Assembly: GCF_026626745.1 (NCBI RefSeq)
Contig: NZ_JAPNJW010000002.1
Coordinates: 1,446,151-1,510,150, forward strand
DNA length: 64,000 nucleotides
Reading direction: 5' to 3'
DNA from: Nannocystis sp. RBIL2
Lineage (GTDB): Bacteria > Myxococcota_A > Polyangia > Nannocystales > Nannocystaceae
In this document: piece by piece, positions 22,801 to 53,611 of the stretch
Numbering within the stretch: the first letter of the stretch is position 1
Layout: each line of letters opens with the position of its first letter
Program-made: the position numbers and the translations under genes
The notes under the pieces: generated by a model
Told to the model about the DNA's origin: nothing
The model's input: the letters and a program-made list of their open reading frames with translations, nothing else
Databases searched by the model: none

Positions 22801-23450
22801 CGCAGATGCCGGCCCAGGGCGTGCGCCTCGCCGACGTCGAGCTGCTCCCCGACATGCGCGTCGAGGGCGGCTGGACCAGCGTCTCGTGCGTGCACCCGCC
22901 GGTGATCCTCGTCGGCCCGGCCGCCCGCGCCGAGACCACCGCCCCGCGGCTGCGCTTCGCCCTCGGGCGCGCGATGTTCTTCACCCGCCCCGCCGCGATC
23001 CTCGTCTCCGGCCTGCCGAAGCCGCTGTTCGCCGGCGTCCTCGCGGCCGCCCTGCAGGCCTTCCACCCGCGCCACACCCGGCGCGTGCGCGCCCGCGACG
23101 AGGCCGACCTGGCCACGCGGCTCGGCCAGACCCTCGCGCGCAAGCTGCCGATCCGCCTGGCCCGCCAGCTCAGCACCGGCTTCAAGGAGCGCGAGCAGGA
23201 GGGCTTCGACAGCCGCGACTGGCGCGCATGGGTCCAGCGCTCCGGCGACCGCGTCGGCCTGTGCCTGTCGCGCAACCTCGGCGCCGCCCTCGACATCCTC
23301 GGCCTGCCCCAAGAGCCAGGCGAACGCAGCGCCGCCCTCAAGGCCCGCGCGGCCTTCGACGCCGACCTGCGCGACCTCCTGGTCTTCGCAGTCAGCCCCG
23401 CCTACGTCGGGGCCCGCCGCGCCCTCGGCTTCGAGGTCAAGTCGCGCTGA
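13833..23450 (+). CDS. Giant tetratricopeptide-repeat (TPR) protein, about 3,205 aa.
   Basis: A single 9.6-kb ORF with consistent GC3 bias. It contains dozens of TPR-like 34-aa units ('A...Y..LG....A...Y...L...P....A'). A central block has 4 tandem ~30-aa repeats '(V/F)DLADLEPVE' followed by a Pro/Ala-rich segment. An in-frame ATG at 13833 carries a short possible extension back to 13749. Confidence 0.85.
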   Translation: MPETAVAPKRQPSPHDLPCPLPPVAHGEPPELGAFRAKPSDDAFLKLRRAFREAENWSALATLLVVHAAAISGPPKVAELCVQAYELWYDRVKDKPQAAYALVRALQAEPHNSRAYEQLRKVYGELGSLDELATLLKFRLDHLRRHDRGAVPGALVELGKVDEQRCQVDEAIACYRAALEINPQERDASDQLIRLHLQAGAWLRVIDLINAELARTDNVRERDRFAALHLRLARIEAEQLENIPSAALHLQAALKANPDDVAALRAFGALYLGSGKASDEGLQKAADVFFRAAKLARSQGDDKIAYSLLRRAMSLRPDHHEAGNALAELLMAQEKWMELDDLYGAWIGYVTEADSYGLWLSRGELLETRLARREEARACYEQASRLERPGGDAWLRLEALLVELGDNHGLVSLYERWSEQDPGGLPTDKLLWAARVAREDLGDEERAAVSFYRVLEREPFNHEAFEGYKEHWRRKNNWSHLAGLILYQGDQALQMGGGPDSPLARSEFAEHFVELAEIYERRLGDLAGALDAWNRLALAYPNDWRPRDQIARIDKRARMLDANLATLEAELQRTVDPQRRFEVLRRLSQAHRERMTDPQRTIVLLQEMLALAPGHEGALRALAEMYERTGAYDQVIDLLRRQHDVTRSISQRVVLLRRMAELWQHELHSPREALWACEQILGYSPSDMDAVHRMQGLCAELGDAGGEYEALSRELGLVGDPAQRTRIIRRMADVADRKLQDPQRSAQAWTQLQAGDPHNLEVTDKLIAAYEALGNREELANLLGKAASSARTPPIRQLDYLMRLGHVAESSLGDADLACSAFERALRIHRDHRGATEALTRLYRNLGSWHGLAASLGTLQDMADSDEEALGIGWERAEVLADRLDNPAAAIRVLEQLSSNAAVGNRDVALKLLELYERAGQFDRLIRHAEILLLSALETDERRELFSLVARTYVVNLNAPHKAIAAFQRFMREEPDDGEGLKILGELQALAGDHQATLDTLGKRLESLTDAAQQVVTLEQMAEVCEFGLGHAKRALALLGRALGIAPGSRDLKQKIEAFAERHGMYKDLLVVYGERFTEMSGRAESRGQIDLCLGASATAEKKIGDPDLAFAWARKAYFVALRAGLDAGTVLDRLEGLAQAHGLWPQMLDVSEQELAFQEKTPNYGDYGTIALLMSAAEIARERLGDPARAIGYLQRAYKLRPDDDDLGRQIEALGEAHQMWQALIDLQELKLGRAKTGLGRFDACVAIAKIYERHLNDHKRAFQWLRRAETDLRPADPSLAEEAAGLMTELAQRHQLWPELADHHRGLALAKLQRNERGGLNQLKDSARIDYEKRQDPLAALRTLRLGVAYDRDGTALMPAIEAMAAKVDEKRSPDTPPTGALTLLSVTQQIIGQTVDPALKLSLLKRRAELRAGLGDTAGAIAEWLRALSLHPGSEEARFELDRLAERDNLWHLLLLAPASELAFGTGKAQQGKLLTQIAELYENCLGRPEYALRARIAAWKLQGDLPPETGELGPVHSKMWHLASLTGTYTAPPPARDPLLWPQIVPPELADRDQWRKLGLDPDTLAPRMAVKARKKEESSVMELDDLEEVSRPTAEIQLSELEPLEELRRGGGKEVVARPGKTVRSETHTNIVDLADLEPVELSATAVKIRAPRPARGETDIVDIADLEAVEASGSVSVRAAGLPRQESGVFDLADLEPIEDSLVGPAPKRPSAEVSGVLDLDEMLELDDDAPRPVAHKRSLPRPAAKPLKPTPPRPPGGKPVAKAPPPARRPAAPPPPSRPPEPVPAASLPPPPPVASRELIDAVTAGLPALPELDAPVLPGRPSASSAWHELAHAYASVVPASKSERAGLQRLLARLWDEGAGMPDAALERYEEALALVPDDAVALSGLVHMAERTADPERLIAALSRLLSDLTLPEHIVAYHLRLADLYEQTGQPERAEEQYRGVLAVSAKHLGALRSLAALHAKTGREREAAEASARLYDVEADGLPLDERIPRVLQLARDLAYRADRSLEAIRRLEALVKETPETADVHAELIEILQREGLWVRAVEALRSAAEVVPNPDARVRCLARAATLTEERLGQPAAAIAGWSEVLDHNPGDPDALVRLQSLYLRTEQYAKLLPILDRRLAQVAPGDRDARIALLVVKARALQEGQGDEAAAQGTLETLAAEAPENDDVVLGLSRLYRKGGRMDDGVEMLRRRLAEIVSDMEVRAEPLDEEPLPFDIPEPVSPALAARRVRIAEALATALAEEAGDPRGALETLDEALAAAPPEAALGLQQRRVALARTLGDDRALTVSLAAVGEPDGILEAAAIARDRLHEPELAAQLFTRVLAELAPGAPQRSRRLSQAIEGLVGLRLAAGDLDGADALLDAQLAQIDDPEIRARILTESGRALLRGGQELARARQRFEAALAADPDYAPARLALGAALIDAGLHAEAEAILEAAVEAFGLTRDQPRLVEGLLMLAHLFEQTDRANEAYRRLSMALRHVPDDLEIRAAMAHNRAAAGRHRDAVAALEPVEQRLAAGTPVPPERAPVVADLLILAAECDAKQNAPAERLAARYARALELAPRHRKARAALAQLAQESGRLVDAAEHTLALADLEQDPEARGRALLAAGMLFHEAAGAAAETGEETVVSVSAQKILGAAFDAVQAGLALIQHIPHPVLDRRQLEAAFWTAVSRNAGIALGCLDRLLHHPDLRDAKRAGFLLEGVKIALQRGEPGDPERALGYARAAVELLPDAAAPIHGLVDALRAAGTVDEIEPAVRAYLAKDSVQKPPGDPREARDRQRLLVRLADLVVQAEPSPDPKDSRPAQAIRLLERAAELDPTGLGLAPRRQLARLYADEKIQGPQVRSNSDALLHLDPLDEASLAALARHCAENGEEGRAHAIHQLLRIVSPGHAEAGAFLTSHELLSVRSGKLDPATVIDPAPADAGVVPALTALWEGAAELLAEELPRPQFSEAAWIEAETDKDTLLWKVWTELGTQMPAQGVRLADVELLPDMRVEGGWTSVSCVHPPVILVGPAARAETTAPRLRFALGRAMFFTRPAAILVSGLPKPLFAGVLAAALQAFHPRHTRRVRARDEADLATRLGQTLARKLPIRLARQLSTGFKEREQEGFDSRDWRAWVQRSGDRVGLCLSRNLGAALDILGLPQEPGERSAALKARAAFDADLRDLLVFAVSPAYVGARRALGFEVKSR

Positions 23451-23595: not shown

Positions 23596-24804
23596 ATGCC
23601 CACCGCGCCGCGTCTCCGGATCTCGCTGCAACTGAGCGTCACGGCCCTGGCCCTGCAGGCCTGCCTCGACCCCAACGCCAACACCGAGACCGAGTCGACC
23701 GCCACCGGCCCCGGCACCACCACCAGCGTCGACACCACCGGCGTCTCCCCGAGCGACCCGACCACGGGCGAACCGACCACGAGCGAGCCCGCCACCACCG
23801 CCGAGCCCGTGTGCGGCGACGGCTTCGTCGACGCCGACGAGCAGTGCGACCTCGGCCCCGACAACGCCGACGACGGCGCCTGCACCTCCGACTGTCGCAA
23901 CGCCACGTGCGGCGACGGCCTCGTCGCCAAGGACGCCGAGGAGTGCGACCTCGGCCCCGACAACGCCGACGACGGCGCCTGTACCACCGCCTGCCTCCTG
24001 CCCGCCTGCGGTGACGGCGTCCTCAACGGCGACGAGGTCTGCGACGACGGCACCAACGACGGCACCTACGGCAGCTGCCTCGCCGACTGCAGCGCCGCCG
24101 CCCCCGGCTGCGGCGACGGCCAGGTCGATCCCGAGAACGAGGACTGCGAGGACGGCCCCGACTGCCTGCCCACCTGCCGGTACGCCCACAGCTGCCTCGA
24201 GTGGCTGGAGGCCACCCCCGAGGCCGTCAGCGGCGTCTTCAGCGTCCGCCGCGAAGGCATCATGGACCCGATCGACGTCTGGTGCGCCCTCGATCCGGCC
24301 GTCGACGGCGGCGGTTACACCTTCCTCAAGGTCGACGTCGCCGGCGGCATGAACCCCAACCCGGCCACCGCCGCCACCGCCGAGGCCGCCTGCGCCGACT
24401 GGGGCATGCAGCTGTTCGTCCCGCGCAGCCCGGCGCACCTCGGCGTCGCCTACGAGGTCGCCACCGGCGACAATCTCGAGCCGGTCGGGGGCGGCACGGT
24501 GAAGAGCGGCGCCGATTACCTGCAGATTTTGGGGATCTATCCAGTCACCGCGGGCGAGAGCTGCGTCGACGCGCCGCTCAACGGGCTCGACTGTCCCGAG
24601 TGGCGCGCCGGCGACGACCAGGCGTGGTTCGTCAGCGACGTCGCCGTCGGCAGCGGCGAGCCCGACGAGCTCGGGGCGTGCGAGGGCTGTTCGATGCTCT
24701 ACCAGTGGAACCAGGACGGCAGCGTGAAGAGCTACAAGGCCCTGCCCCAGCCGGGCGGCTACAGCTTCCGCTTCCTGTGCGACACGGGCGATAAATTGCC
24801 CTGA
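23596..24804 (+). CDS. Secreted lipoprotein with myxobacterial Cys-rich repeats and a C-terminal globular domain that is possibly fibrinogen-like or lectin-like.
   Basis: Lipobox 'LALQAC'. Thr-rich linker. Four 'CGDG(x)V...E(E/Q)CD.G' repeats (TIGR02232-type as recalled). The C-terminal region contains 'VWCALDPAVDGGGYTFLKV'. Confidence 0.75.
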   Translation: MPTAPRLRISLQLSVTALALQACLDPNANTETESTATGPGTTTSVDTTGVSPSDPTTGEPTTSEPATTAEPVCGDGFVDADEQCDLGPDNADDGACTSDCRNATCGDGLVAKDAEECDLGPDNADDGACTTACLLPACGDGVLNGDEVCDDGTNDGTYGSCLADCSAAAPGCGDGQVDPENEDCEDGPDCLPTCRYAHSCLEWLEATPEAVSGVFSVRREGIMDPIDVWCALDPAVDGGGYTFLKVDVAGGMNPNPATAATAEAACADWGMQLFVPRSPAHLGVAYEVATGDNLEPVGGGTVKSGADYLQILGIYPVTAGESCVDAPLNGLDCPEWRAGDDQAWFVSDVAVGSGEPDELGACEGCSMLYQWNQDGSVKSYKALPQPGGYSFRFLCDTGDKLP

Positions 24805-26206: not shown

Positions 26207-26720
26207 GCTCTTCGCATTGTCGATGCTCTCGCTGCCCGAGGCGACGCGAGCATCGACTTCGAGCGGCCCGACCCGCCGGCGTGACCCGGCCCCGAGCTGC
26301 TCGCAGAGCTGCCCTGAGGAGGGCGAGCGCATCGACTTCGGGTGGCGCGACCCGCCGGCGTGACCCGGGTCCGGACGCATCCCCTTCGCCGGCATCGGCG
26401 CCGAGTCTTCCCACGGCGCGCCTCCTCTCGACCCGTCCTCGCCACGGAAGCGATCGCTGCGCTCCACCTTCGTGGTCCTCGCCTCGCCCGCGTGAGGACC
26501 CGCCGCGCCTGCCGTCTTCTCGTCGCTATCGCGCGGCGGACTGCTCCGACCTGACGGCCGCGTAACGGTCCGCGCACGGACGCGCTGCATCTTTCCTCCG
26601 ACGCTGCTCCGCGGGCGCGGCTTCGGCCGGATGGGTGGGCTCAGGGCGCACCTGCCCGCGGACGTCGCCTGCGGCGGCGCGAGTTGCCGGCCTTCGCTCG
26701 ACTCTCGTACCCTGGCGAGC

Positions 26721-28646
26721 ATGCTCGCTTACAGCTTCGCTTGTCGTTCGCTGGGTCTCGTGATGCTCGCCTCGGCCCTCGCCTGTGGTCGCACCGACAC
26801 TGCAGTGCTCACGGACACCGGCACCGGCACCACCGACACTGACGGCACCACCACTGCAGGCAGCACCACCGGCCCCGACTTGCCGACCACCACCGCGCCG
26901 ACTACCGAGACCGGCACGATCGGCGGCACCGAGACCGGCACCACCCTCGAGCCGACCACCGGGCCTGCCACCGACACCGCGATCACGAGCACCGACGGCA
27001 CGGTCACCGACGGCACCATCACCGACGGCACCACCACCTCGACCACGACTTCGACCTCGACCACCACCACCACCGGCGAGACCGACAGCACCACCGGCCC
27101 GCCGCCGATCTGCGGCGACGGTCAGGTCGATCCGGGCGAGGAGTGCGACGACGGCGACCTCGTCGACCTCAACGCCTGCTCCAACGCCTGCATCGCCGCC
27201 GTGTGCGGCGACGGCATCGTCCAGGAGCTCGTGGGCGAGGAGTGCGACGACGGCAACGACATCGAGGGCGACGGCTGTTCGACCGGCTGTCGCCTCCCCG
27301 TCTGCGGCGACAGCATCGTCCAGATCACCGAGGAGTGCGACGACGGCAACCTCGACGACGGCGACGATTGCACCAACGCCTGCACCACCGCCGTGTGCGG
27401 CGACGGCGTCGTCCAGGTCGGCGTCGAGCCGTGCGACGACGGCAACGACCTCGACAACGACGACTGTCTGGTCGGCTGCATCCTCGCCGAGTGCGGCGAC
27501 GGCATCGTCCACGACCTGCTCGAGGCCTGCGACGACGGCAACGACGTCAACGACGACACCTGCACCAACGAGTGCGCCCTCGCCACCTGCGGCGACGGCA
27601 TCTTGCAGATGGACGAGGAGTGCGACGACGGCAACGCCCTCGACGACGACGCCTGCACCACCCTGTGCAAGCTCGCGGTGTGCGGCGACGGCTTCGTCCT
27701 CGCCGGCACCGAGGCCTGCGACGACGCCGGCAACAGCCCCGCCTGCGACAGCGACTGCACCCTCCCGCAGTGCGGCGACGCCCACCACAACCCGGCCAGC
27801 GGCGAGGCGTGCGACACCGGCGGCGACAGCCCCACGTGCGACAGCGACTGCACCCTCGCGGTGTGCGGCGACAAGACCGTCAACGGCGCCGCCGGCGAGA
27901 CCTGCGACGCCGGCACCGAGACCGCCACCTGCGACGACGACTGCACCGCCGTCGTCTGCGGCGACGAGGTCCTCAACGAGAGCGCCGGCGAGGCCTGCGA
28001 TCACGGCAGCCAGACCTCCACCTGCGACCTCGACTGCACCTTCGCCGCCTGCAACGACGGCGTCATCAACAGCGCCGCCGGCGAGAACTGCGAGGACGGC
28101 AACCTCGCCGAGGGTGACGGCTGCAGCTCGAAGTGCAAGGCGCACAAGGTCGTGTTCGCCACCAGCCAGGGCTTCGACGGCAACCTCGGCGGCCTCGCCG
28201 GCGCCGACATGAAGTGCCAGGCCGCCGCCCAGGCCGCCGGCCTCCCCGGCACCTACCGCGCCTGGCTGAGCGACGACACCGGCACCCCCGTCACCCGCTT
28301 CACCAAGTCGGCCATCCCCTACGCCCGCCGCGACGGCGTCCTCGTCGCCAACAACTGGGCCGACCTCATCGACGGCAACATCGCCGCCGCCATCAACCTC
28401 TCCGAGCTCAAGACCCCGCCCGGCTCCGACGCCAACGTCTGCGGCGGCGTCTCCCAGCTCACCTTCACCAACACGATCACCAACGGCACCATGTTCACGG
28501 ACTTCACCGATTGCCAGAACTGGACCAGCAACGCCCCCGGCTTCACCGGCGGCGGCCAGTGGAACAAGGCCGACGGCCTGTGGACGCAATTCGTCTGCCA
28601 GCAATCGTGCGCCTGGAAGAAGCCGATCTACTGCTTCATGCAATAG
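26721..28646 (+). CDS. Lipoprotein with about 12 myxobacterial Cys-rich repeats and a C-terminal DUF1554-like domain.
   Basis: Lipobox 'ASALAC'. Thr-rich linker. Reiterated 'CGDG.V...EECDDGN...DGC...C' units. The C-terminal 'KVVFATSQGFDGNLGGLAGADMKCQAAAQAAGL...YRAWLSD' matches the DUF1554 pattern as recalled. Confidence 0.8.
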   Translation: MLAYSFACRSLGLVMLASALACGRTDTAVLTDTGTGTTDTDGTTTAGSTTGPDLPTTTAPTTETGTIGGTETGTTLEPTTGPATDTAITSTDGTVTDGTITDGTTTSTTTSTSTTTTTGETDSTTGPPPICGDGQVDPGEECDDGDLVDLNACSNACIAAVCGDGIVQELVGEECDDGNDIEGDGCSTGCRLPVCGDSIVQITEECDDGNLDDGDDCTNACTTAVCGDGVVQVGVEPCDDGNDLDNDDCLVGCILAECGDGIVHDLLEACDDGNDVNDDTCTNECALATCGDGILQMDEECDDGNALDDDACTTLCKLAVCGDGFVLAGTEACDDAGNSPACDSDCTLPQCGDAHHNPASGEACDTGGDSPTCDSDCTLAVCGDKTVNGAAGETCDAGTETATCDDDCTAVVCGDEVLNESAGEACDHGSQTSTCDLDCTFAACNDGVINSAAGENCEDGNLAEGDGCSSKCKAHKVVFATSQGFDGNLGGLAGADMKCQAAAQAAGLPGTYRAWLSDDTGTPVTRFTKSAIPYARRDGVLVANNWADLIDGNIAAAINLSELKTPPGSDANVCGGVSQLTFTNTITNGTMFTDFTDCQNWTSNAPGFTGGGQWNKADGLWTQFVCQQSCAWKKPIYCFMQ

Positions 28647-29338: not shown

Positions 29339-30634
29339 ATGTCGCCCTCCCGTCGTCCGGGCCCCTGCACTCTCGCCGCGCTGGCCCTGTTCGCCTGCGG
29401 CCCGACCCCCGGCAGCGACCCGACCACCGACGCGAGCACGACGACCGCCACGAGCTCCACCGAGCCGTTCGTCGACACGACGACGACCGGCACACCGATG
29501 ACCGGTGAGCCGACGACCAGCTCCGACACGACCGTCGCCACGACCGTCGACCCGACGACGACCGGCATCGACCCGGGCACCACGAGCGACACGACCACCA
29601 CCACGACCAGCGACGGCTCGACCACCGCCGATGCCGACTGCACCGTCGTCGAGTTCACCGAGCCCGCGCTCGAGGCCGCAGTGCGCCTGGCCTACGGTCT
29701 ACCGCCCGGACCGATCGCCGGCGACGCGCTGACCGGCCCGGGGGGGATCGTCGTCGCCAAGCTCCAGCATGGCCCGATCGCCGACCTCACCGGGCTGGAG
29801 TGTGCGACCGGGGTCGTGAGTCTGACCCTGGTGGGCCACGAGGCCTTGACCGACATCTCGCGGATCGCGGGGCTGACCAAGCTCGAGTGGCTCGAGCTCT
29901 CGGAGACCGCGGTCACCGACCTCTCGCCGCTGGCAGGGCTGACGGCCCTGAAGAATCTCTACCTCGGCAGCATCCCGGCGACTGACATCAGCCCGATCGC
30001 CGGTCTGTCCGCCCTCGAAGTTCTCAGCCTGCGAGCCTCGCCGAGCACCGACATCTCGCCCTTGCAGGGCCTCGCGGCGCTCAGGCGGCTCGACCTCGGC
30101 CATACCCTCCCCGTCGACCTCTCCCCCCTCACCGGCCTCGTCACCCTCGAGGAGCTCGACCTCGCCGAGTCCGAGGTCACCGACCTCGCGCCGCTCGCCG
30201 GCCTGCCGGCGCTCGTCCGGCTCGACCTGACCCACTCCGCGGTCACCGACCTCGGGCCGCTCGCCGGCGTGCCCAAGCTCGAGCGGCTGTTCATGGCCGA
30301 CACCGAGGTCGCCGACCTGTCGCCCCTGACGGGCCTGCCGATCCTCTACCTCTACGCCCCGTCGTGTGCGATCACCGACCTGAGCCCGATCGCCAGCTTC
30401 CCGATCCCGGAAGTGATCGACCTCAGCGACAACATGATCGTCGAGGTCGACGCTCTCGCCGGCGTCGACTGGATGGTCCCCGAGAATACGTGCGCCATGC
30501 TCCTGCTGGCTGGCAATCCGCTGTCCGCCGAGGCCAAGCAGCAGCTCCCCGCCATGTGCGAGGCCACCGGTGTCAGCTTCGAGGCCGGCGTCCTGCAGTG
30601 CATCACCGACGCCTGCATCCCCCCGCCGCCCTGA
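29339..30634 (+). CDS. Leucine-rich-repeat (LRR) lipoprotein.
   Basis: Lipobox 'ALFAC'. Thr-rich linker. At least 9 tandem ~22-aa LRR units of the form 'L..L.LS.T.VTDLSPLAGL'. Confidence 0.8.
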   Translation: MSPSRRPGPCTLAALALFACGPTPGSDPTTDASTTTATSSTEPFVDTTTTGTPMTGEPTTSSDTTVATTVDPTTTGIDPGTTSDTTTTTTSDGSTTADADCTVVEFTEPALEAAVRLAYGLPPGPIAGDALTGPGGIVVAKLQHGPIADLTGLECATGVVSLTLVGHEALTDISRIAGLTKLEWLELSETAVTDLSPLAGLTALKNLYLGSIPATDISPIAGLSALEVLSLRASPSTDISPLQGLAALRRLDLGHTLPVDLSPLTGLVTLEELDLAESEVTDLAPLAGLPALVRLDLTHSAVTDLGPLAGVPKLERLFMADTEVADLSPLTGLPILYLYAPSCAITDLSPIASFPIPEVIDLSDNMIVEVDALAGVDWMVPENTCAMLLLAGNPLSAEAKQQLPAMCEATGVSFEAGVLQCITDACIPPPP

Positions 30635-30913
30635 GCTGCCGTCGAACCCGGCTGATCCGCTCAGCCCGCGGCGCCCTGTTGCAGCGCAGTGAACACCTTC
30701 GCACAGCGCAGCGTGGGAACCCCACGCAAGACGGAGGTGGGCGGCTCCACGTCGAACCGTTCCAGATCCGGCTCGCACACCACCGGCAAGCGGCGCCCAA
30801 ATCGCGCACGACCGCACGTTCGTGCATCCGGCATTCGCGCTCGAGGCCGCCGAAAAAAATCTGCCCTCGCCTTTGCAACACTCGCCCGCGCGGTGGCATG
30901 CCGGCGGTGAACG

Positions 30914-33900
30914 ATGACCCACTCCGGAGCGACCGCCGCTTTCGCGGACATGAATTGGCTGCAACGCCTGGCCGCCGCCCTCGCACGAGACGCCGACGAC
31001 GCCGCCGACCTCGTGCAGGACACGCTCGTGACCGCATGGTCCCACCCGCCGGCCGACGACGGCCAGCCGCTGCGCCCGTGGCTGGCGACGGTCCTTCGCA
31101 ACCGTTTCCGCATGCAGCTGCGCACGCAGGCGCGTCGCGAGCGGCGCGAGCAGGCTGGGGCGTCGACGAGGGCGATCGCCGCCGAGCCCGACCGGGAGTT
31201 GCTGCGCCTGGAGCTGCTCCGTGTGCTCCTCGCCGAGCTCGAGCGGCTCGCGCCCGAGGACCAGAAGATCATCGTCCGTAGGTTCTTCGAGGGTGAGAGC
31301 GCGGCCGAGATCGCCCGCGGGCTCGCCATTCCTGCGGCGACCGTCCGCTCGCGCCTCCACCGCTCGCTCCAGCGCCTGCGTGCTCGACTCGACGAGCAAT
31401 TCGGCGGGCGTTCGGCCTGGTGTGTCGTGGTCCTGCCCGCGCCTCACGGCGCGTCGCTCCCGTCCGCGAGCCCAAGCAGCTCCATGAGCATCGCCGCGAA
31501 AGTCATTCTCGTGACGAGCCTCGGCATCGTCGGTGTGGCCGGCTGGCTCGCGCTCACGGAGCCATCCCCGGCGGGGCCTCCCTCCGCGGGACCGACTGCC
31601 TCGCAAACCGTCCTGCGGTCTCCGGTGGAGGGACCGGCGAGGACGCCGATCGACCCGCGCCGTGCAGACCGGGCGGCCATCTCCGGGCACGTGCGCGATC
31701 CCGAGGGCCACCCGGTGCCGGCTGCGACGGTGTGCGCGGCGTCGTCGTCGGAGACGCTCGGCGCGTCCGAGCGGCGCGCGAGGCCTTGCACGATCGCGGC
31801 GGCGGACGGCTCTTATCGCCTGGACGGCCTGCTGGCAGTGCCGCATCGGATCACCGCGAGCGCGCCGCATTTCATCCCGCGGGCGCACCGGAGCGGCTCC
31901 GGGGCCCTGGCGCGCGAGCTGGTGCCCCTGCGCTTCGGGCAGGAAGAGCGTGGCATCGACATCACCCTGCTGCCCGGCGGGGTGAAGCTCGTCGGCATCG
32001 TGCGCGACCTCGGCGGCGGAGAGGTCGATGGCGCGCTCCTCGAAGCGGGCGACGCGGCCGGGCGCTCGGGCGCGGACGGCAGCTTCTCGCTGTGGGTCCG
32101 CCCGGGCGAGGTGCTGGTGACGGCGACGGCGGAGGGCTATGCGGACGCGCAAACCTCCGGACGCGCACCGGGATTGACGCTCGAGATCCTCATGATTCCG
32201 GAGTCGGTGCTGCTCGGCCGGGTGGTGCGCGCCGACGACGGGTCGCCGGTCGCGGGCGCCGAGGTGAGCGCGCTCAACGGCGGCGGCTGGGGTCGCCAAG
32301 GACCGGCCTTCACCGACGCGTCCGGAAACTTCAGGATCGACGCGTTGCGACCCGGTGCCTACAAGGCGCGGGCGCTGCATGACGAGGGATATGGTGCTGC
32401 GGAGGCGCTGGTGGTGCTCGGCCTCGGTGAAACCTCCGCGCCGGTGGAGGTCCGCATGCACCCGGCTTTCCTGGTCGAAGGGACAGTCGTGGTCGCCGGC
32501 GGGGGCACGTGCGATCGCGGCTCGATCATCCTCTCGGACCCCCAAGGCCAGCGTCATGCGACTATCTCACCCGACGGCCGGGTGCGGGTCCCGGGGCTGC
32601 TGCCCGGGAGTTACAAGGTGGACGTCCGGTGCGAAGGGTTCGTGTCGGCGCCGAGCTACCCGCCCCTGGCGATCGCCGACCGCAGCCTCCGCGAGCTACG
32701 CTGGGAGGTCCGACCGGGCCAGGCGATTCGCGGTACGGTCGTCGCTACGACCAGGGATCCCGTCACTGCGATGACGGTGACGGTGAACCCGCAGGTCGAC
32801 CCGAGCCGTTCGAATGCGCAGTCGACCAGCGGAATCGCAGAGGCCGACAACGCCGGACGGTTCGAGGTCAAAGGCCTGTTGCCGGGGCGCTATGCATTGC
32901 GCGTGTTCGCCGGAGATCCACCGCAGCTCCTCCAGGGGCCCGAAGTCGAGGTTCGTGACGGACATGACCTCGAAGACATCCGTATCGAGCTGCCGGCGGC
33001 CGGCGAGGTCCGTGGCGAGGTCCACGACGTCCACGGCCGCGCCATCCCCGGGGCGAGGGTCTTGCTGCGTGGGCCGACCTACGCGCAGACGACCAGCCTC
33101 GACGACGGGAGCTTCCGCCTCTCCGGCCTCGCTGCCGGCGCGTACCAGGCGAGCGTGAACAAGAGCTACCAGCCGCTGCGCATGCACGACGCCAAGGACG
33201 GCGAAGCGCCGCGCGTGGAGGTCGAGACCGGCGAGGCCGCTGTCCTCGACCTCGTCGTCGAGGCCCCGGACGGGAAGATCTCTGGACGGGTCGTGGATAG
33301 CGACGAGGCAGCGCAGGACGACGTCTTCGTCGAGGTCTTGCACGAGCCGGAGAGCGGCTCACCAGGGGCCACCTTGCGCGACATGCGGTGGAGCATGGAC
33401 CGCGGCCTGCGGCCGCGGATGACCGACGTCGACGGAAGGTTCGAGTTTGGCGACCTGCCTGAAGGGACATATACGCTCGTGGCCCACCGGCGTGACGGCG
33501 GCGAGGGGATCGTCGAGCGGGTGGCCGTGGGCAGCGAGGTCGTCGTCAAGATAGCCGCGCCGGGCTCGCTGGTCGGGCGGGTACGCTTGCCCGGCGGCGG
33601 CGGACCAGAGCGATTCTCGGTGGAGCTCCGCGATGCGGCGACCGGCTACCAGGTACGCGACAGCTTCTTCCGCACCGACGGGACGTTCGCGTTCCCGCAG
33701 GTGCCTGCAGGTAATTTCGTGGTCGCAGTCGAGGCGCCGGAAGGCGCGGGCAAGGCCGAGGTCGCGCTGGCGACGGGCGAGCGCGGACAGGTCGAGGTCA
33801 CGCTGGCGGGCCGCGTCACCGTCCGCGGCCGCGTGCTCGACCTCGACACCGGCGAGCCGGTGCCGGGAATGCGCGTGAAGTTCGGCGCGGAAGGGAGAGA

Positions 33901-34405
33901 GGCGTTCATCAGCTCGGCGGACCACGTCGACGAGCGCTCGGTGTCCGACGCGGACGGCCGATTCGAGGTCGCCGACGTGCCTGTCGGCCATGCGACGGTG
34001 ATCGTCACCGCCAGGAGCTTCGGAGCGACGAGCGACCACGAGACTATCTGGACGCGTGTACGGATCTCGAACGGTAGCGTGGTCGAACTGGCGCCGCTCG
34101 AGGTGCCGCGAAGCCGGCTTCAGCCCGGCGACGAGGCCGGCGAGCTCGGCATGACGATGCGACGAGACGTTCCGACCGAGGGAGCGGAAGCGCGGCCGCC
34201 GACAATCGCGTTCGTGCAGCCTGGCGGCCCAGCCGCGCACGCCGGGCTGCGGGTCGGCGACGCGATCGTCGCGGTCGACGGACATGACGTCACCGGCGAC
34301 CACGTGCATCGCTTCGATGCCCTGACACGGGTGCCCGTGGGGACCGAGCTCCGCCTCGAGCTCGAGCGTGGAGGCAGCGTCACGCTCACCGCCGCACGCC
34401 GATGA
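30914..34405 (+). CDS. ECF sigma-70 factor fused in one polypeptide to a TM helix, a large extracytoplasmic region with carboxypeptidase-regulatory-like (Ig-like) repeats, and a C-terminal PDZ domain.
   Basis: Region 2 'DLVQDTLVTAWSH...PWLATVLRNRFRMQLR'. Region 4 HTH 'LAPEDQKIIVRRFFEGESAAEIARGLAIPAATVRSRLHRSLQRLRARL'. Hydrophobic helix 'IAAKVILVTSLGIVGVAGWLAL'. Repeated ~80-aa beta-rich units of the form 'G.V.D..G.P..GA.V.......T.(D/A)GSFR..GL..G.Y'. C-terminal PDZ-like 'IAFVQPGGPAAHAGLRVGDAIVAVDG'. The frame is continuous with no stop. Confidence 0.75.
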   Translation: MTHSGATAAFADMNWLQRLAAALARDADDAADLVQDTLVTAWSHPPADDGQPLRPWLATVLRNRFRMQLRTQARRERREQAGASTRAIAAEPDRELLRLELLRVLLAELERLAPEDQKIIVRRFFEGESAAEIARGLAIPAATVRSRLHRSLQRLRARLDEQFGGRSAWCVVVLPAPHGASLPSASPSSSMSIAAKVILVTSLGIVGVAGWLALTEPSPAGPPSAGPTASQTVLRSPVEGPARTPIDPRRADRAAISGHVRDPEGHPVPAATVCAASSSETLGASERRARPCTIAAADGSYRLDGLLAVPHRITASAPHFIPRAHRSGSGALARELVPLRFGQEERGIDITLLPGGVKLVGIVRDLGGGEVDGALLEAGDAAGRSGADGSFSLWVRPGEVLVTATAEGYADAQTSGRAPGLTLEILMIPESVLLGRVVRADDGSPVAGAEVSALNGGGWGRQGPAFTDASGNFRIDALRPGAYKARALHDEGYGAAEALVVLGLGETSAPVEVRMHPAFLVEGTVVVAGGGTCDRGSIILSDPQGQRHATISPDGRVRVPGLLPGSYKVDVRCEGFVSAPSYPPLAIADRSLRELRWEVRPGQAIRGTVVATTRDPVTAMTVTVNPQVDPSRSNAQSTSGIAEADNAGRFEVKGLLPGRYALRVFAGDPPQLLQGPEVEVRDGHDLEDIRIELPAAGEVRGEVHDVHGRAIPGARVLLRGPTYAQTTSLDDGSFRLSGLAAGAYQASVNKSYQPLRMHDAKDGEAPRVEVETGEAAVLDLVVEAPDGKISGRVVDSDEAAQDDVFVEVLHEPESGSPGATLRDMRWSMDRGLRPRMTDVDGRFEFGDLPEGTYTLVAHRRDGGEGIVERVAVGSEVVVKIAAPGSLVGRVRLPGGGGPERFSVELRDAATGYQVRDSFFRTDGTFAFPQVPAGNFVVAVEAPEGAGKAEVALATGERGQVEVTLAGRVTVRGRVLDLDTGEPVPGMRVKFGAEGREAFISSADHVDERSVSDADGRFEVADVPVGHATVIVTARSFGATSDHETIWTRVRISNGSVVELAPLEVPRSRLQPGDEAGELGMTMRRDVPTEGAEARPPTIAFVQPGGPAAHAGLRVGDAIVAVDGHDVTGDHVHRFDALTRVPVGTELRLELERGGSVTLTAARR

Positions 34406-34462: not shown

Positions 34463-34831
34463 TCAGCCCCAGGAGTCATGCAGCACCCGGTGACCGAACG
34501 CCTCGATGAGCGCCCGCATGCACTCAGTGCCGCCAAACGGCCCCGCATACGGGTCGAACTCGAGGCGCGCCGTCGTCGGCGAAATCCGACGGCAGCCCAG
34601 GATCTCGTACTCGCCGTTGCGGAACGCGTCGAGCATCGACCCGAAATCCCAGGGTGTCTCGAGGCCCGGGTCGTACGGTCGCTCCGAGGCCGGGGTCGCA
34701 TCCCAGCGGCGACGGTACGCCGCCAAATCCGCCGCGGTCGGCCACCAGAAAAAGGCCCTCGCCTCGGCATCGAAGAAGCCGAGCCAGAAATCGTCGTCCG
34801 GCCACACGTCCTCCTGCTTGCTGAGGCGCAA
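34463..34831 (-). CDS. Hypothetical small Trp-rich protein. It has a TTG start as annotated. The true N-terminus may lie 26 codons upstream, across an in-frame TAG.
   Basis: 122-aa ORF. Directly upstream and in the same frame is ATG(34907)-'MTAFFLEFEVVREDR'-TAG(34860-34862), then the ORF continues. Confidence 0.4.
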   Translation of the reverse strand: MRLSKQEDVWPDDDFWLGFFDAEARAFFWWPTAADLAAYRRRWDATPASERPYDPGLETPWDFGSMLDAFRNGEYEILGCRRISPTTARLEFDPYAGPFGGTECMRALIEAFGHRVLHDSWG

Positions 34832-35071
34832 GGCCTCGACGACCCCGACGAGGGGCGCCTAGCGGTCCTCGCGGACGACTTCGAACTCGAGGAAGAAGGC
34901 AGTCATCGACGCTCTGCGGAGGGCGGAGGATCACACGGCCCCGCCGGTCCCTCAACTGCGGCTTGCCGCTTCGGGCGTGAGACCGACGCGACACAGCTCA
35001 GCATCGCCAAGATGCTGAGTCACAGCTCGCCACTGTGCTCCCGAGGTGCAGGGGTCCACCTCGACGGCGAT

Positions 35072-36784
35072 TCACTCGGCGCGGGGCTCGAGGTCGGGGT
35101 CGATCAGCGCGCGCACGTAGGCGTGGTAGTGCGTGGCGATCGCCGCCTCGAACCTGGCCTGAAGTTCAGGCGACATGCCGAACGGCCCGTCGGCCCAGAA
35201 GCTGAAGTCGGCGATGAAGTCGTCCTCGGAGCGGTCGTAGACGCGCCAGTCGATCGCGGGGAACGGCGGGAGGTTGTAGGACAGCGGGAACTCGAGCCAC
35301 GCGCGCAGGCTGGTGCTGCTGGCGCTCGGCTCGTCGTCGTCGTCGTCGTCCGCGTCGCGCGGGTCGGTGTACACGACGTCGAGGCCGTTGCGATCGAGCA
35401 GCTCGCGCCAGAACCGGGCGACGATCCGGAACAGCGCCGCGTCGCCGTCGATCGGCATCACGTGGCCGTTCCACGGGTCGCTCATCAGGATCGTCTCGAA
35501 CTCCCCGCCGGGCGGGCACAGCTCGATCCGGTCCTCCTGGAACGTCCCGGGCTCCGGGCGGTGGCACGGGCAGAACAGCACGGTCCAGCCGTCGAGCTCG
35601 AGCGCCGCGAGCAGCTGGTCGTCGACGCTCTCGCGCAGCGCGTCGGTCTCGGCCTCGTCGAGCAGCCGGACGCGCGTCGCGGCCGCGGCGAGCCGCTCCT
35701 CGCTCAGCCTCGCCCGCGGCGACGGAGGCGGCGCCGCGCCGGGCGGGCCCTCTGCGACCCATACCGCCAGCAGGCCCAACGGTTGCGACGCCCTCAGGAA
35801 CCCGTTGAACATGAACACGACGTCGACCTCGACGTCCTCGCGGGCGAGGTACTCCTGCGCCGCGGCCCGCCACGCCGCGACGGCCGCGTGCGCCGCCGCT
35901 TCGTCAGTCGGCGCGGGGGCCAGGTAGTCCTCCACCGCGAGCGAGCCCACGAACACCTCGCGCTCGTGGATGTCGACCAACTCGCCGCCCTCGTGCGTGT
36001 CGACGCGCACCAGCCAGCGCAAGAGGCCGTACTGGGGCGCCTCGTCCTCGTGCCGGACCGACAACAGGTGCAGCGTGTGGCGCGTATCGCCGGCGACCGC
36101 CTCGGCGAGCGGACGCTCGCCGCCGATGCCGAGCAGCTCGAGCCCGCGGGTCAACAGCCACCCGGCTCGCCCGCCGACCTCCTCGGGGATCAGCGCCTGC
36201 ACCAGCGCGTCGGCGATCGACTCGGGAGAGCGCGGGTGCGGAGCGGCGAGCGCCGAGCGCAGCGCCGCCTCGGCCCGCGCGCGCCAGTCCGGCGCGACCG
36301 GGAGGTCGTTGGCGATGTACGACGGCATGCGGGCCAGGCCGCGCGCCCGCTGCTCGACGCCGCCGCCGCTCCAGCGCATCACGACGTGCACCCTGCCCTC
36401 GCTGCCGCGCAGGTGCGGCCGCAGCCAGTCGACCTGCAGCGCCCGCGCGCCGTCGGCGACGCGCAGGCCGTCGAACACCCGGGCCTTCAGCGCCGCGCCG
36501 ACGCTACCTGTCTCCAAGGACAGTTCGGCGAACTCGTCGCCGACGAGCGCAGCGAGCTCGGCCCGCAGCGCCGGGTCGGCCGCGTCGCCCGCCTCGGCGA
36601 GCGCGACGATCGCCAGCTCGGGGCCGCGAGGGAGGCACTGAGTGTGCCGCAATTCCTCGGCGAGCGCGTCGCGGTCGAGCATCGGCACGTTCGCCGGCGG
36701 CCACGCGACGTGCTGGTCTCGCGGCAGCGCGGCCGCCCGTGACAGCGCCTCGATCAGGGCGTCGGACCATTCGACGGAGCTCAT
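35072..36784 (-). CDS. Hypothetical protein, 571 aa.
   Basis: ATG at 36784, 'MSSVEWSDALIEALSR...'. The annotated longer ORF extends to 37837, but its first ~350 codons are Arg/Ser/Ala-rich off-frame-like sequence overlapping a better + strand gene. An acidic 'DADDDDDDE' tract lies near the C-terminus. No recognisable domain. Confidence 0.55.
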   Translation of the reverse strand: MSSVEWSDALIEALSRAAALPRDQHVAWPPANVPMLDRDALAEELRHTQCLPRGPELAIVALAEAGDAADPALRAELAALVGDEFAELSLETGSVGAALKARVFDGLRVADGARALQVDWLRPHLRGSEGRVHVVMRWSGGGVEQRARGLARMPSYIANDLPVAPDWRARAEAALRSALAAPHPRSPESIADALVQALIPEEVGGRAGWLLTRGLELLGIGGERPLAEAVAGDTRHTLHLLSVRHEDEAPQYGLLRWLVRVDTHEGGELVDIHEREVFVGSLAVEDYLAPAPTDEAAAHAAVAAWRAAAQEYLAREDVEVDVVFMFNGFLRASQPLGLLAVWVAEGPPGAAPPPSPRARLSEERLAAAATRVRLLDEAETDALRESVDDQLLAALELDGWTVLFCPCHRPEPGTFQEDRIELCPPGGEFETILMSDPWNGHVMPIDGDAALFRIVARFWRELLDRNGLDVVYTDPRDADDDDDDEPSASSTSLRAWLEFPLSYNLPPFPAIDWRVYDRSEDDFIADFSFWADGPFGMSPELQARFEAAIATHYHAYVRALIDPDLEPRAE

Positions 36785-37001
36785 CGCGCCGACTATAGCG
36801 AATCCGGGCGCCGATCCCCACGGCACGCCGCCTGAACGATGCACTTGCGGATCGCCGGCGCCTCCCCGTGGAAGACGCCGTCGGTCGCGGCCGACGTCTC
36901 GCCGCCGCCATGCCGGCCTGGGCGCCGACGCACCCGCGCGCCATCGTCTCCCGGTCCGCGCAGGGCGTCCCGGTGCGGCGTCGGGACGCCCGCGCCTCGT
37001 C

Positions 37002-38213
37002 ATGGTGGTGAGATCGGCTTCCGCGTGCGTCGAGCGTGTTGACGAGGCGCGAGGGCTCGTCGAGGCTTCACCCGTGCTCCTCCGCGACGACGATCCCCGC
37101 GCGTCGATCCTCCTGACCTGGCTCGTGACGCGGCGGCTGCTCGCCCCGGTCGCGGCCGACATGCAGCGCGTCCGGGAAGTACGACTGCCCGCCGACGCCG
37201 AGCTCTGGATCTCGCGCTGGGACGGGCTCACCGACGATCTCGCCGCGCCGCCGGCAGCCGCCTTTCTCGTGGCGTTCCACGGCCGACCGCTCGAGGCAGT
37301 TCTGGCGCGCGAGTGCGGGAGCACCCGCCCTGAGCTCGCCACGCTCGACGTGGAGCGCTTCGAGCGTATCGCGCGCGCGATCGATCGCGCGTTCGCCACT
37401 GCACCTGCCGACGCGCCCCGGCCCCTCGATGTGTCGCTGCTCGCGGCGCCCGTACGCGCGACCCTCGAGGGCCTCGGGCTCGTCTGGGTCGCGCACGAGC
37501 ACGCGTTCGTGCGCGCATCGGCGGAGCTCGTGCAGCGCGTGGAGGTCACCTCCTGGCGGCGCTCGCCTGCCGCGCCCGGACACTCTCTGCGAGCGAGCGC
37601 GAGCGTGCGAGCCCCACGCCTCGATCGGCTGCGTGACGCGCTCACACGCGAGGGCGTGACCTTCGACGCGACCCTCCTCGTGTCACCTCTGCTCGGGCGC
37701 TCCGGCCCCACGCACGAGCTCACGTCCACGCGACGCATCGACGCCCTCGTCGCACCGCTCTCGCACGAGCTGGAGGGGCTCGCGCGCTGGGTCGTCACTT
37801 TCGACTCACCCGTGAAAGTCCTCGCCGCCTTCGCCATCGACGATCCCGCCTGGTGGTCGACGTGGGTGCCGGGCAGCGACGCCGCATGGCCGGAGCGACG
37901 CGCCCTGCTCTCGGTGCTCCACGGAGGCGTGAGCCCCGCGGACGCGCTCGCGTCGGCCGACGCGATCTACGTGCGGCTCGGGCGGACGGCGCTTCGCCGG
38001 CGTCACGATCTCGAACGACTCCGACGCTTGCTCGAGCATGCGACGCGACACGATGCCCTCGCAGAGGCGGCCGCCCCGCCATCGCCTCGCCGGGTGCGTC
38101 ACGCCAAGTTCGGCACCGGCACCGTACGCGCCGAGCGAGAGGGCAAGCTCGTGATCGCGTTCGACGACGGCGTCGAGCGCGTCCTGCTCCCGCGCTTCTG
38201 CTCACCCGAGTGA
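37002..38213 (+). CDS. Hypothetical protein whose C-terminus resembles the UvrD-helicase C-terminal Tudor-like domain (DUF3553-like).
   Basis: ATG at 37002, 'MVVRSASACVERVDEARGL...'. The C-terminal motif 'RVRHAKFGTGTVRAEREGKLVIAFDDGVERVLLPRF' matches the recalled '(R/H)..FG.G.V.......G...V.F...G.K.L' pattern. It is divergent from the 35072..36784 gene. Confidence 0.55.
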   Translation: MVVRSASACVERVDEARGLVEASPVLLRDDDPRASILLTWLVTRRLLAPVAADMQRVREVRLPADAELWISRWDGLTDDLAAPPAAAFLVAFHGRPLEAVLARECGSTRPELATLDVERFERIARAIDRAFATAPADAPRPLDVSLLAAPVRATLEGLGLVWVAHEHAFVRASAELVQRVEVTSWRRSPAAPGHSLRASASVRAPRLDRLRDALTREGVTFDATLLVSPLLGRSGPTHELTSTRRIDALVAPLSHELEGLARWVVTFDSPVKVLAAFAIDDPAWWSTWVPGSDAAWPERRALLSVLHGGVSPADALASADAIYVRLGRTALRRRHDLERLRRLLEHATRHDALAEAAAPPSPRRVRHAKFGTGTVRAEREGKLVIAFDDGVERVLLPRFCSPE

Positions 38214-49724: not shown

Positions 49725-50227
49725 GGTCGGTTTCTCCGCCCACCAGTTTGATCGCGGTTGCACCGCGCGCTCGCCCGACTAGCGCCAGCAAACGGCGCCA
49801 GGCGCTCGTCACGGCCCTTGTCATGCCGTCGATTTCGGCGGCGCGTTCGCCATTCCCACCGTTCGCGCGCACGACGCAGCCCGATCGTACGAATCACGGG
49901 CGCAGCGGACTCGGCCGTGTGAACCGCCTCCGCCTCGGCCTCGGCGCCGTTCTGCCGGGGATGCGGGCGTGGAGACGGGGGTATCGCCTGGCCCGCAGGG
50001 GAGACACCGATCGTCGCAGCGCCCTTTCATACGCGTCATGCGAAACATCACCCGCCCTGCCGCGCTCGGCCTCCCTGCGCGTCCCGCCACGAATCATGCT
50101 TCGTGCGAATGATATACCCTCACGGGCTGCGGCGGCCGGACCGGCCACGCGCTCGTCGGAGGTTCGCCGCGCAGCGGCCATCGGCCGGCGGGGCGCCTCG
50201 GACACCGCGGACACTAAGGAGCATCGG

Positions 50228-53200: not shown

Positions 53201-53611
53201 CGCATGCTGCGGGACGCTCGCCACCGCGACGCGGTGTTCGAGGGTCGGCGCGTGCTCGTCGTCGAGGACGACGTCCGCAACGTGTTCGCCTTGACCAGCG
53301 TGCTCGAGCCGCGCGGGGCCAAGGTGGAGATCGCGCGCAACGGCAAGGAGGCGCTGCAGCACCTGAAACTCAAGCCGGGCGTCGACCTGATCCTGATGGA
53401 CCTGATGATGCCGGAGATGGACGGTCTCACCGCCACGCGGGCGGTCCGCGCCGACCCTGCGACCGCCAAGATCCCGATCATCGCCCTCACCGCCAAGGCC
53501 ATGGCCGACGATCGCGCCAGCTGCCTCGCCGCCGGCGCCAACGACTACATCGCCAAGCCGCTCGACGTCGACAAGCTGCTGTCGCTGGCGCGGGTGTGGA
53601 TGCCCAAATGA
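50228..53611 (+). CDS. Hybrid sensor histidine kinase: CHASE3, GAF, Q/E-rich coiled coil, HisKA, HATPase_c, and 3 receiver domains.
   Basis: GTG at 50228 with 'aaggag' 6 nt upstream. TM helix '[16 protein letters not shown]'. CHASE3-like '[26 protein letters not shown]'. H-box '[10 protein letters not shown]'. N/G boxes 'LLSNALKFT', 'DTGIGI' and 'GTGLGLSI'. Three REC blocks, each with 'D...(L/M)D' and a Lys. Confidence 0.85.

Follow-up and report, generated by a model that had tools for sequence, protein, structure and literature searches.

A membrane-anchored ECF sigma factor of Nannocystis with a CarboxypepD_reg-PDZ ectodomain, no recognisable anti-sigma domain and a candidate promoter of its own

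The 64,000-nucleotide stretch of Nannocystis sp. RBIL2 analysed here (contig NZ_JAPNJW010000002.1, positions 1,446,151 to 1,510,150, below called the window) contains a gene in which the coding sequences of an extracytoplasmic function (ECF) sigma factor, a hydrophobic helix, a string of beta-sandwich repeats and a PDZ domain follow one another in one open reading frame (ORF; Table 1). The host belongs to the Myxococcota (Polyangia, Nannocystales) and the product is 100% identical to a protein of this strain that is annotated as a sigma-70 family sigma factor. A preliminary description of the locus had proposed that a cytoplasmic ECF sigma factor, a membrane anchor and extracytoplasmic repeats with a PDZ domain are united in one polypeptide, and this was borne out by domain profiles, by hydropathy and by an intact ORF in four genomes. 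The single-gene fusion of ECF sigma factor, membrane helix and ectodomain is real and not the product of a frameshift.

With a G+C content of about 70% the window is rich in long spurious ORFs (e.g. a 952-aa antisense ORF at 29699-32557). Nevertheless, the codon-position G+C content keeps to one frame along the entire ORF 30914-34405 (0.80-0.92 at the third position (GC3) and about 0.5 at the second), without a frame switch at the junction of the sigma and transmembrane (TM) segments (31300-31600), which identifies this ORF as the coding frame. The same fusion, with a length of 1,161-1,163 aa, was found in N. pusilla (90% identity) and N. bainbridge (86% identity). The ORF is intact in all four Nannocystis genomes compared, indels at the sigma/TM junction are multiples of three, and neither a stop codon nor a frameshift separates the sigma factor from the TM helix in these four independent assemblies. 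Pairwise ratios of nonsynonymous to synonymous substitutions (dN/dS) between the four genomes were 0.22-0.34 for the sigma part, 0.23-0.28 for the CarboxypepD_reg repeats and 0.26-0.56 for the PDZ domain, and were highest for the juxtamembrane/TM segment (0.47-0.87) and the linker; the whole ORF is under purifying selection.

These observations bear on an alternative in which a sigma factor gene and a membrane protein gene downstream of it were joined only by an error of assembly or sequencing, or in a pseudogene of recent date. This could be argued from 973/974-aa database versions without the sigma domain (P0004 and P0005, 79% identity) and from a truncated 691-aa copy of N. pusilla (P0006), but it is effectively refuted by the sigma region that lies in frame and without a stop at the P0005 locus, by the selection on an intact ORF in four genomes and by the recurrence of the fused layout in 74 full-length matches and most of 209 extended relatives. 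The shorter versions were also considered as split genes (P0004/P0005), and this was rejected because the sigma region is continuous at the P0005 locus and the gap stems from gene calling. In Nannocystis sp. SCPEA4, for instance, the homologue (79% identity) is annotated as an apparently sigma-less protein of 973 aa, yet the sigma-coding region is present in the same frame with no stop and the ORF is continuous from 5416/5419 (locus L001); in the annotation of this part of L001 (5365-6001) the gene starts at the internal Met191, and the sigma region is covered by a 167-aa antisense ORF that is spurious. The copy P0006, from a second N. pusilla assembly (12.2-Mb contig), begins with MDEQFGG, the end of sigma region 4 (sigma-4), and has an out-of-frame Arg-rich tail; the gene is either disrupted in that strain or affected by errors of its assembly.

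The start codon is probably the ATG at 30914 and the annotated RBIL2 start 12 codons too late, because the database entry (P0001, 1,151 aa) begins at Met13, a codon that SCPEA4 replaces by CTG, and all four Nannocystis orthologues keep the ATG that lies at 30914. No Shine-Dalgarno-like sequence was found in the RBIL2 gene for an internal start at Met191, which would yield a sigma-less second product, and Met191 is conserved only within the closest subfamily.

By sequence profile the N-terminal part is a canonical ECF (group IV) sigma factor with regions 2 and 4 only. The earlier assignment of these regions held in searches with hidden Markov models (HMMs), all scores exceeding the curated cut-offs: Sigma70_r2 matched residues 14-75 (42.7 bits, cut-off 24), Sigma70_r4 residues 109-157 (42.2 bits) and Sigma70_r4_2 residues 104-155 (42.1 bits) in Pfam, and the NCBIfam model TIGR02937 (sigma70-ECF) scored 71.7 bits against a cut-off of 42.9. 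Neither Sigma70_r3 nor Sigma70_r1 matched in the Pfam/NCBIfam scan of the protein. The closest solved relative was SigL of M. tuberculosis (6dv9_F; E 2e-18 by sequence, 34% identity by Foldseek), the structure of which was solved within an RNA polymerase initiation complex. An AlphaFold2 (AF2) model of the whole protein, built on 81 homologues, had a mean predicted local distance difference test score (pLDDT) of 86.9 and a predicted template modelling score (pTM) of 0.75, the latter unexpectedly high for a 1,163-aa chain of at least 12 domains. In this model the helices of sigma regions 2 and 4 are confident (residues 4-163), with a pLDDT above 90 over most of both domains.

A very improbable alternative is that the domain is a PhyR-like mimic of a sigma factor, a membrane-anchored decoy that does not bind RNA polymerase. 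It would account for weak matches to Pfam PhyR_sigma2 (E 0.031 for the Nannocystis protein, as low as 9e-6 for the relative P0123), but these score below the curated cut-off and such cross-matches are expected, as PhyR derives from ECF sigma factors. Moreover, sigma-2 and sigma-4 are both above cut-off, the residues that are invariant in the family alignment fall within the core-binding and DNA-recognition segments, a receiver domain is absent and the family is specifically accompanied by an ECF-type promoter motif (see below).

The protein lacks an anti-sigma domain. It had no match to zf-HC2, RskA, FecR or RseA at E<=1 in Pfam, and as the gap of about 30 residues between sigma-4 and the TM helix is too short to hold one, a hidden anti-sigma domain was rejected. 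Anti-sigma families were likewise without a match among the neighbouring ORFs scanned in the window, and there is no anti-sigma factor at position +1. The genes that flank the fused sigma gene differ in every genome, leaving no conserved partner genes, no TonB-dependent receptor gene was identified adjoining the gene in the loci examined, and no paralogue of it occurs in the window.

Directly after sigma-4 the protein carries a juxtamembrane motif of the pattern GxRxxW...P. An alignment of diverse family members shows no variation at R166 and W169 of this motif and hardly any at P177. RxxW occupies this place in 184 of the 209 extended relatives, and AF2 predicts a short helix at residues 166-173. 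The proposal of a single TM helix agrees with the hydropathy profile, as the protein has one hydrophobic segment only (residues 197-215, mean Kyte-Doolittle value 2.12). A hydrophobic helix was found within 200 aa after sigma-4 in 194 of the 209 extended relatives, at a median distance of 30 aa and in 160 cases at 20-39 aa. The net charge falls from +1.2 before the helix to +0.2 behind it, and a bias toward an N-in orientation is seen in 120 members against 41 without it; together with the hydropathy this positive-inside bias supports a helix that is oriented N-in, with the sigma factor in the cytoplasm and the C-terminal part outside the cytoplasmic membrane. Substrates of RseP and other site-2 proteases (S2P) have one N-in TM helix that contains helix-destabilising residues, and a bulky ectodomain has to be shed before they are cut. 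In the present family the 19-aa core of the TM segment contains 3.7 G/P/S/T/N residues on average, and the ectodomain of the Nannocystis protein measures about 950 aa, properties that are permissive for such cleavage but not diagnostic of it. The Pro/Ala/Ser-rich linker that follows is probably disordered, to judge from the AF2 model, in which a low-confidence stretch (residues 180-241) spans the hydrophobic segment and the linker.

The ectodomain consists of CarboxypepD_reg repeats and the PDZ domain. Pfam CarboxypepD_reg matched in nine stretches (E 3.8e-76, 251.9 bits), and an iterated internal-repeat HMM placed the repeat starts near residues 259, 362, 437, 525, 609, 702, ~806, ~889 and 974, so that the count is nine and not the ten or more given in the preliminary description. 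AF2 predicted beta modules for residues 254-1051, and the ectodomain model resembles the immunoglobulin (Ig)-like domain strings of pilins and adhesins (Foldseek); as modelled, the nine repeats may pack as a defined superstructure and not as loose beads. The C-terminal PDZ domain was recovered as described before, with PDZ_6 at 45.4 bits (cut-off 27), PDZ at 33.3 bits (cut-off 23.2) and a confident AF2 fold, and on inspection its ELGM motif is like a carboxylate-binding loop (x-Phi-G-Phi). Its suggested resemblance to RseP stands in so far as the closest solved sequence relative is indeed PDZ-C of E. coli RseP, but the match is weak (E 5e-5, 24.8 bits).

Judging from sequence comparison, the Nannocystis protein belongs to a large, uncharacterised family of sigma-TM-ectodomain proteins without an anti-sigma domain. 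An N-terminal sigma domain was present in 74 of 120 full-length matches, nearly all of them with a hydrophobic helix at about residues 165-260. A phmmer search with residues 1-215 against 1.8 billion representatives returned 38 matches below 1e-30, and among the 152 nearest sigma relatives examined 135 (~89%) are extended (at least 280 aa) and 17 shorter. Members were found in Myxococcota (Nannocystis, Kofleriaceae and Myxococcales metagenome-assembled genomes), in Planctomycetota (including Saltatorellus ferox Poly30), in other phyla and in metagenomes. The complete sigma-TM-CarboxypepD_reg-PDZ layout is shared by distant members (P0031, P0148 and the protein encoded at locus L131), and the PDZ domain is missing from most other fused CarboxypepD_reg matches.

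The two halves of the protein have different nearest relatives. The sigma-juxtamembrane-TM module is closest to metagenomic proteins of ~460-490 aa (P0121-P0145; 43-72% identity through residue ~214), which carry a different ectodomain of ~250 aa with conserved cysteines and without a Pfam match; they agree with what has been published on ECF220s1, and do so better than the Nannocystis protein. In many of them a Gly-Gly-Glu run, which could encode a Shine-Dalgarno-like sequence, stands immediately in front of the Met at the beginning of the TM region. The ectodomain, on the other hand, is closest to stand-alone proteins of ~980 aa (35-51% identity) that lack a sigma domain and have no more than a signal or anchor at the N-terminus, and fused CarboxypepD_reg relatives show only 26-29% identity in this part. 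At four loci of such stand-alone proteins no sigma-like sequence was found, nor the motif CAACAC-N13-GGCAT at the expected position; one of the four belongs to N. bainbridge, where it is a paralogue of the fused gene present in the same species. As similarity to the sigma-less homologues begins at about residue 245, the sequence comparison puts the junction of two evolutionary modules in the disordered linker (residues ~215-245). In planctomycete ECF sigma factors the sigma-2/sigma-4 part and a captured extension were found to differ in evolutionary history, the extensions reaching as much as tenfold the size of the sigma part and resembling proteins that stand alone in related organisms (Pinto and da Fonseca 2020, PMC7671368). 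The apparent modular origin of the Nannocystis protein matches this scenario of extension capture. That work described a general phenomenon; the promoter motif of the present family, its CarboxypepD_reg-PDZ extension and its conserved cassette of sigma, juxtamembrane and TM parts are not described there (PMC7671368).

The stand-alone relatives show that the ectodomain serves a function independent of the sigma factor, which would agree with a release coupled to export. In that case the hydrophobic segment would be an internal signal sequence, processing would free the ectodomain, peptidases of the S2P or SppA type would clear the remnant and one sigma factor would be set free per ectodomain. 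RseP has been reported to eliminate remnant signal peptides (PMC8144685; bioRxiv 10.1101/2021.02.04.429786). We consider this reading improbable: it is entirely speculative, inspection of the sequence after the hydrophobic segment gave no clear AxA signal-peptidase site, and the sharing of one sigma-TM module by unrelated ectodomains suits a sensory role better.

We also found a candidate for a promoter that would be recognised by the family itself. Among the Nannocystis orthologues conservation upstream of the ATG reaches only about 50 nt, and this block contains the motif GCAACAC-N13-GGCAT, the only exact copy in the window. Distant fused homologues have GCAACAC-N13-GGCA(A/T) at the same place, ending 9-14 nt before their start codons, and a relaxed pattern, defined after the family sequences had been seen, was present at 8 of 12 family loci against 2 of 67 other ECF loci. 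For an independent set, 56 metagenome stretches were drawn by a DNA pattern derived from the peptide PWLAT[VI][LV]RN, with the strict motif fixed beforehand. Here, the strict motif stood at the expected position before 9 of 16 distinct sigma ORFs with an extension or a TM helix and before none of 13 sigma-only ORFs (Fisher p = 0.0012), as well as before 4 of 9 sigma ORFs that were cut off before the TM region; the distance between GGCAT and the start codon, often GTG, was 3-15 nt. In 1.4 Mb of strand sequence (~0.7 Mb of loci, both strands) 20 of the 24 motif copies stand directly before family sigma ORFs. A sigma-70-type promoter was not found upstream of the gene, and the search for a terminator near it gave a single terminator-like match on the opposite strand, at chance level.

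ECF sigma factors recognise a bipartite promoter with an AAC-type -35 element, which usually also precedes their own gene. The distribution of CAACAC-N13-GGCAT suggests that it is the cognate, autoregulated ECF promoter of the family and that the mRNA is leaderless or nearly so. Comparable -10 elements, such as GGCA and GGTGT, have been given for ECF264 and ECF268 (ECF classification 2.0, Table S2). With respect to a wider regulon, a one-mismatch match at 48723 was discarded, as it lies inside a coding region and is probably due to chance. At locus L131 (5019-10082) a divergent gene for a 303-aa protein with a Golvesin_C domain has CAAC-N15-GGCAT 4 nt before its ATG; by its sequence, this gene is a possible target and the single candidate for a regulon member.

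Taken together, we favour, with moderate confidence, the interpretation that the protein is a membrane-anchored ECF sigma factor without an anti-sigma domain that is silenced by tethering, released by regulated proteolysis and autoregulated. The tethered sigma factor would be inactive or weakly active simply by being held at the membrane, and the ectodomain would sense a signal, with a C-terminal peptide as the probable ligand of the PDZ domain. The signal would lead to shedding of the ectodomain at site 1, after which an RseP-type site-2 protease would cut within the membrane and free a sigma factor of ~20 kDa that could bind RNA polymerase. Positive autoregulation through its own promoter would then replenish the tethered pool, and the newly made protein, tethered again, would reset the system. 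Proteolytic release has a precedent in IutY, for which release by Prc and RseP was shown, and the ECF52 protein SCO4117 is thought to be processed as well (PMC8999054).

Several points weigh against this interpretation. AF2 gives no helix at the hydrophobic segment (pLDDT below 50), the TM assignment coming from a hydropathy scale, and the similarity of the PDZ domain to that of RseP is weak. A gene for a site-1 or site-2 protease is not consistently linked to the family loci. With respect to autoregulation, the relaxed promoter pattern was drawn up with knowledge of the family sequences, and 7 of the 16 extended genes of the independent set lack the strict motif. In addition, a cut by S2P would leave a hydrophobic tail on sigma-4 that, as in the processing of RseA, could be a target for degradation of the ClpXP type. 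Finally, the C-terminal extensions of ECF41 and ECF42 are compatible with activity, so that tethering alone need not silence a sigma factor (PMC7826278).

The last point leads to another reading, rather unlikely in our view, in which the sigma factor works while anchored: RNA polymerase would be recruited to the membrane and the ectodomain would tune activity by conformation or oligomerisation, without cleavage. ToxR, CadC and TcpP are membrane-bound transcription activators that could serve as analogy. The sigma factor's own gene, if transcription, translation and membrane insertion go on together, would sit beside the tethered protein, and a near-leaderless start would suit such a coupling of transcription, translation and insertion. 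Such activity at the membrane would agree with the absence of an anti-sigma domain that could inhibit the sigma factor and of a consistently linked protease gene, with the conserved juxtamembrane motif and fixed spacing of ~30 aa, which suggest a structural role of the tether, and with the finding that the extensions of ECF41/42 can even be needed for activity (PMC7826278). On the other hand, a tether of 30 residues leaves little room for holoenzyme and DNA at the membrane, promoters of targets at other chromosomal sites would need to come to it, a membrane-bound active sigma factor was not found in the literature searched and IutY, the only characterised fused example, requires regulated intramembrane proteolysis (PMC8999054). 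A broader idea, which we put forward as doubtful, is that direct membrane tethering without an anti-sigma domain is a separate signalling principle, built on a conserved juxtamembrane GxRxxW cassette with interchangeable ectodomains, in which the sigma factor would be silenced by the tether alone and would act at the membrane on its own near-leaderless gene, the product of which is inserted during translation, or be released one-for-one as the ectodomain is processed, and in which the PDZ domain would read C-terminal peptides, bringing the logic of sigma-E/RseA/DegS into one polypeptide.

The family poses the question how a membrane-tied sigma factor is kept silent and then activated. It comprises at least hundreds of clusters at 50% identity and is prominent in Myxococcota and Planctomycetota, phyla that are rich in uncharacterised ECF sigma factors. 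Experimental handles are the conserved sigma-juxtamembrane-TM cassette, the candidate promoter, which could be used as a reporter, and the natural sigma-less ectodomain homologues, which could be used as comparators. Self-contained orthogonal pairs of a sigma factor and a promoter with a built-in transmembrane sensor would be of interest for synthetic biology.

The genes around the fused sigma gene were also inspected. The upstream DUF4215 and leucine-rich-repeat genes (Table 1) are not conserved beside the orthologues in other Nannocystis species. Downstream (34463-37837) GC3 favours genes on the minus strand (34463-34831 and 35072-~36700) over a plus-strand ORF (34478-36742); none of these ORFs has a Pfam match, and a 921-aa minus-strand ORF seems to shift its coding signal near 36700. 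Elsewhere in the window, on the plus strand, we observed a giant ORF of 3,233 aa (13749-23450, GC3 0.97) that consists mostly of tetratricopeptide (TPR) repeats, and two large sensor kinases (131-4540 and 49748-53611), one with AAA_16, two GAF, HisKA and HATPase domains and the other a CHASE3-GAF hybrid kinase with three receiver domains. At other loci, the 781-aa member at L131 (sigma-TM-CarboxypepD_reg x5-PDZ) has a convergent gene of the HtrA type (Trypsin_2 and PDZ), an arrangement that does not recur among the loci, and a faint Peptidase_S41 match upstream in SCPEA4 was dismissed as a linked protease because it is not conserved. GDPD and Phosphodiest genes lie directly upstream and on the same strand, ~145-155 nt from the sigma genes, at two loci (L005, 2270-3856; L006, 2294-3847), and a Phosphonate-bd gene lies ~1.6 kb upstream of a distant fused homologue on the opposite strand (L007, 1545-2375). 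These phosphoester and phosphonate neighbours hint at a link to phosphate scavenging for three distant homologues, one that is absent from the Nannocystis loci.

Table 1. Features of the fused sigma factor gene and its upstream region (positions in the window; residues of the 1,163-aa product)
Feature	Position	Strand	Residues	Evidence and remarks
Upstream neighbours	23596-24804, 26631-28646, 29339-30634	+		two proteins with Cys-rich DUF4215 repeats, an endostatin-like segment in one of them; a 431-aa leucine-rich-repeat protein
Conserved upstream block	30865..30913	+		sole conserved intergenic part in four Nannocystis orthologues; blastn, alignment
Bipartite motif GCAACAC-N13-GGCAT	30875..30899	+		-35-like element 30875-30881, -10-like element 30895-30899; ends 14 nt before the ATG
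Complete sigma-TM-repeat-PDZ ORF	30914..34405	+	1-1163	ATG start; stop codon included
Sigma region 2	30953..31138	+	14-75	Pfam Sigma70_r2; AF2 helices 4-84, pLDDT >90
Sigma region 4, helix-turn-helix	31223..31384	+	104-157	Pfam Sigma70_r4 and r4_2; AF2 helices 92-163
Juxtamembrane motif GGRSAWCVVVLPAP	31403..31444	+	164-177	R166, W169 and P177 conserved in the family
Predicted single hydrophobic TM segment IAAKVILVTSLGIVGVAGWLAL	31490..31555	+	~193-214	hydropathy
Pro/Ala/Ser-rich linker	31556..31672	+	215-253	predicted extracytoplasmic; pLDDT <50 up to residue 241
Nine CarboxypepD_reg (transthyretin-like beta-sandwich) repeats	31673..34066	+	254-1051	Pfam, internal-repeat HMM, AF2
C-terminal PDZ domain	34127..34381	+	1072-1156	Pfam PDZ_6/PDZ/PDZ_2; ELGM motif

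The preliminary description had implied that a one-component transmembrane sigma factor would be exceptional. The architecture is real, but ECF sigma factors with TM-containing extensions have been described before (IutY, ECF52/53/48, ECF220 and subgroups of ECF21) and the present family is large. In the ECF classification 2.0 (Table S2) such extensions are listed for ECF21 (s12/s29), ECF48, ECF51s5, ECF52, ECF53 and ECF57, and further for ECF216s2, ECF220s1, subgroups of ECF243, ECF262 and ECF263. In the fusions for which a mechanism was proposed or shown (ECF48/52/53, the FecR fusions of ECF243 and ECF21) the extension carries an anti-sigma element. CarboxypepD_reg occurs in Table S2 only in separate genes (ECF54, the context of ECF57, ECF216s1 and ECF255), and neither a group with a CarboxypepD_reg-PDZ extension nor the motif CAACAC-N13-GGCAT is found there.

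IutY of Pseudomonas putida, an ECF243 protein with a fused FecR, has the same order of an N-terminal ECF sigma factor, one TM helix and a periplasmic C-terminal part, and its activation by sequential proteolysis, by Prc and then RseP, was shown experimentally (PMC8999054). It differs in that a FecR-type anti-sigma/pro-sigma domain lies between sigma-4 and the membrane and in that it signals with a TonB-dependent receptor, whereas the Nannocystis protein has a linker of ~30 aa without an anti-sigma domain and an ectodomain of nine CarboxypepD_reg repeats and PDZ. The actinobacterial ECF52/53/48 proteins (e.g. SCO4117 of Streptomyces coelicolor) combine a sigma factor, one or more TM helices, a Pro-rich segment and an extracytoplasmic binding domain, and proteolytic activation has been proposed for them (PMC8999054). 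These belong to other phyla, with carbohydrate-binding ectodomains and a zinc-finger (ZAS-like) anti-sigma domain before the TM part, and such a zinc finger is absent from the Nannocystis protein.

The nearest description is that of ECF220 (Polyangiaceae), with a C-terminal extension, approximately one TM helix and no anti-sigma factor, although its extension is 0-400 aa long without a Pfam domain and no conserved promoter was reported. In ECF216 (Myxococcales) some members likewise carry a short extension with a TM part, and a CarboxypepD_reg protein is encoded in the gene context of the group, but a separate anti-sigma factor is described at +1. The protein of Nannocystis (Nannocystaceae), with its extension of ~1,000 aa that holds CarboxypepD_reg and PDZ domains and no anti-sigma factor at +1, departs from what is described for both groups. 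In the two-gene systems of ECF255, ECF54 and the ECF57 context an ECF sigma factor likewise goes together with CarboxypepD_reg domains exposed by a membrane protein, there encoded by separate genes and with an anti-sigma domain, in contrast to the single polypeptide of Nannocystis, which lacks one. A functional analogy exists with the sigma-E/RseA/DegS/RseP pathway, in which a sigma factor is also kept at the inner membrane, proteolysis is gated by PDZ domains that recognise C-terminal peptides, and intramembrane cleavage brings about release. There, the sigma factor is a free protein to which RseA binds, and PDZ domains are part of the proteases, whereas in Nannocystis the PDZ domain is part of the tethered sigma protein, which has no protease domain. 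An ECF sigma factor fused to CarboxypepD_reg and PDZ domains without an anti-sigma domain was not found in the literature searched. Transmembrane-fused ECF sigma factors are already known, and the anti-sigma-less CarboxypepD_reg-PDZ protein is a new form among them and not a new category.

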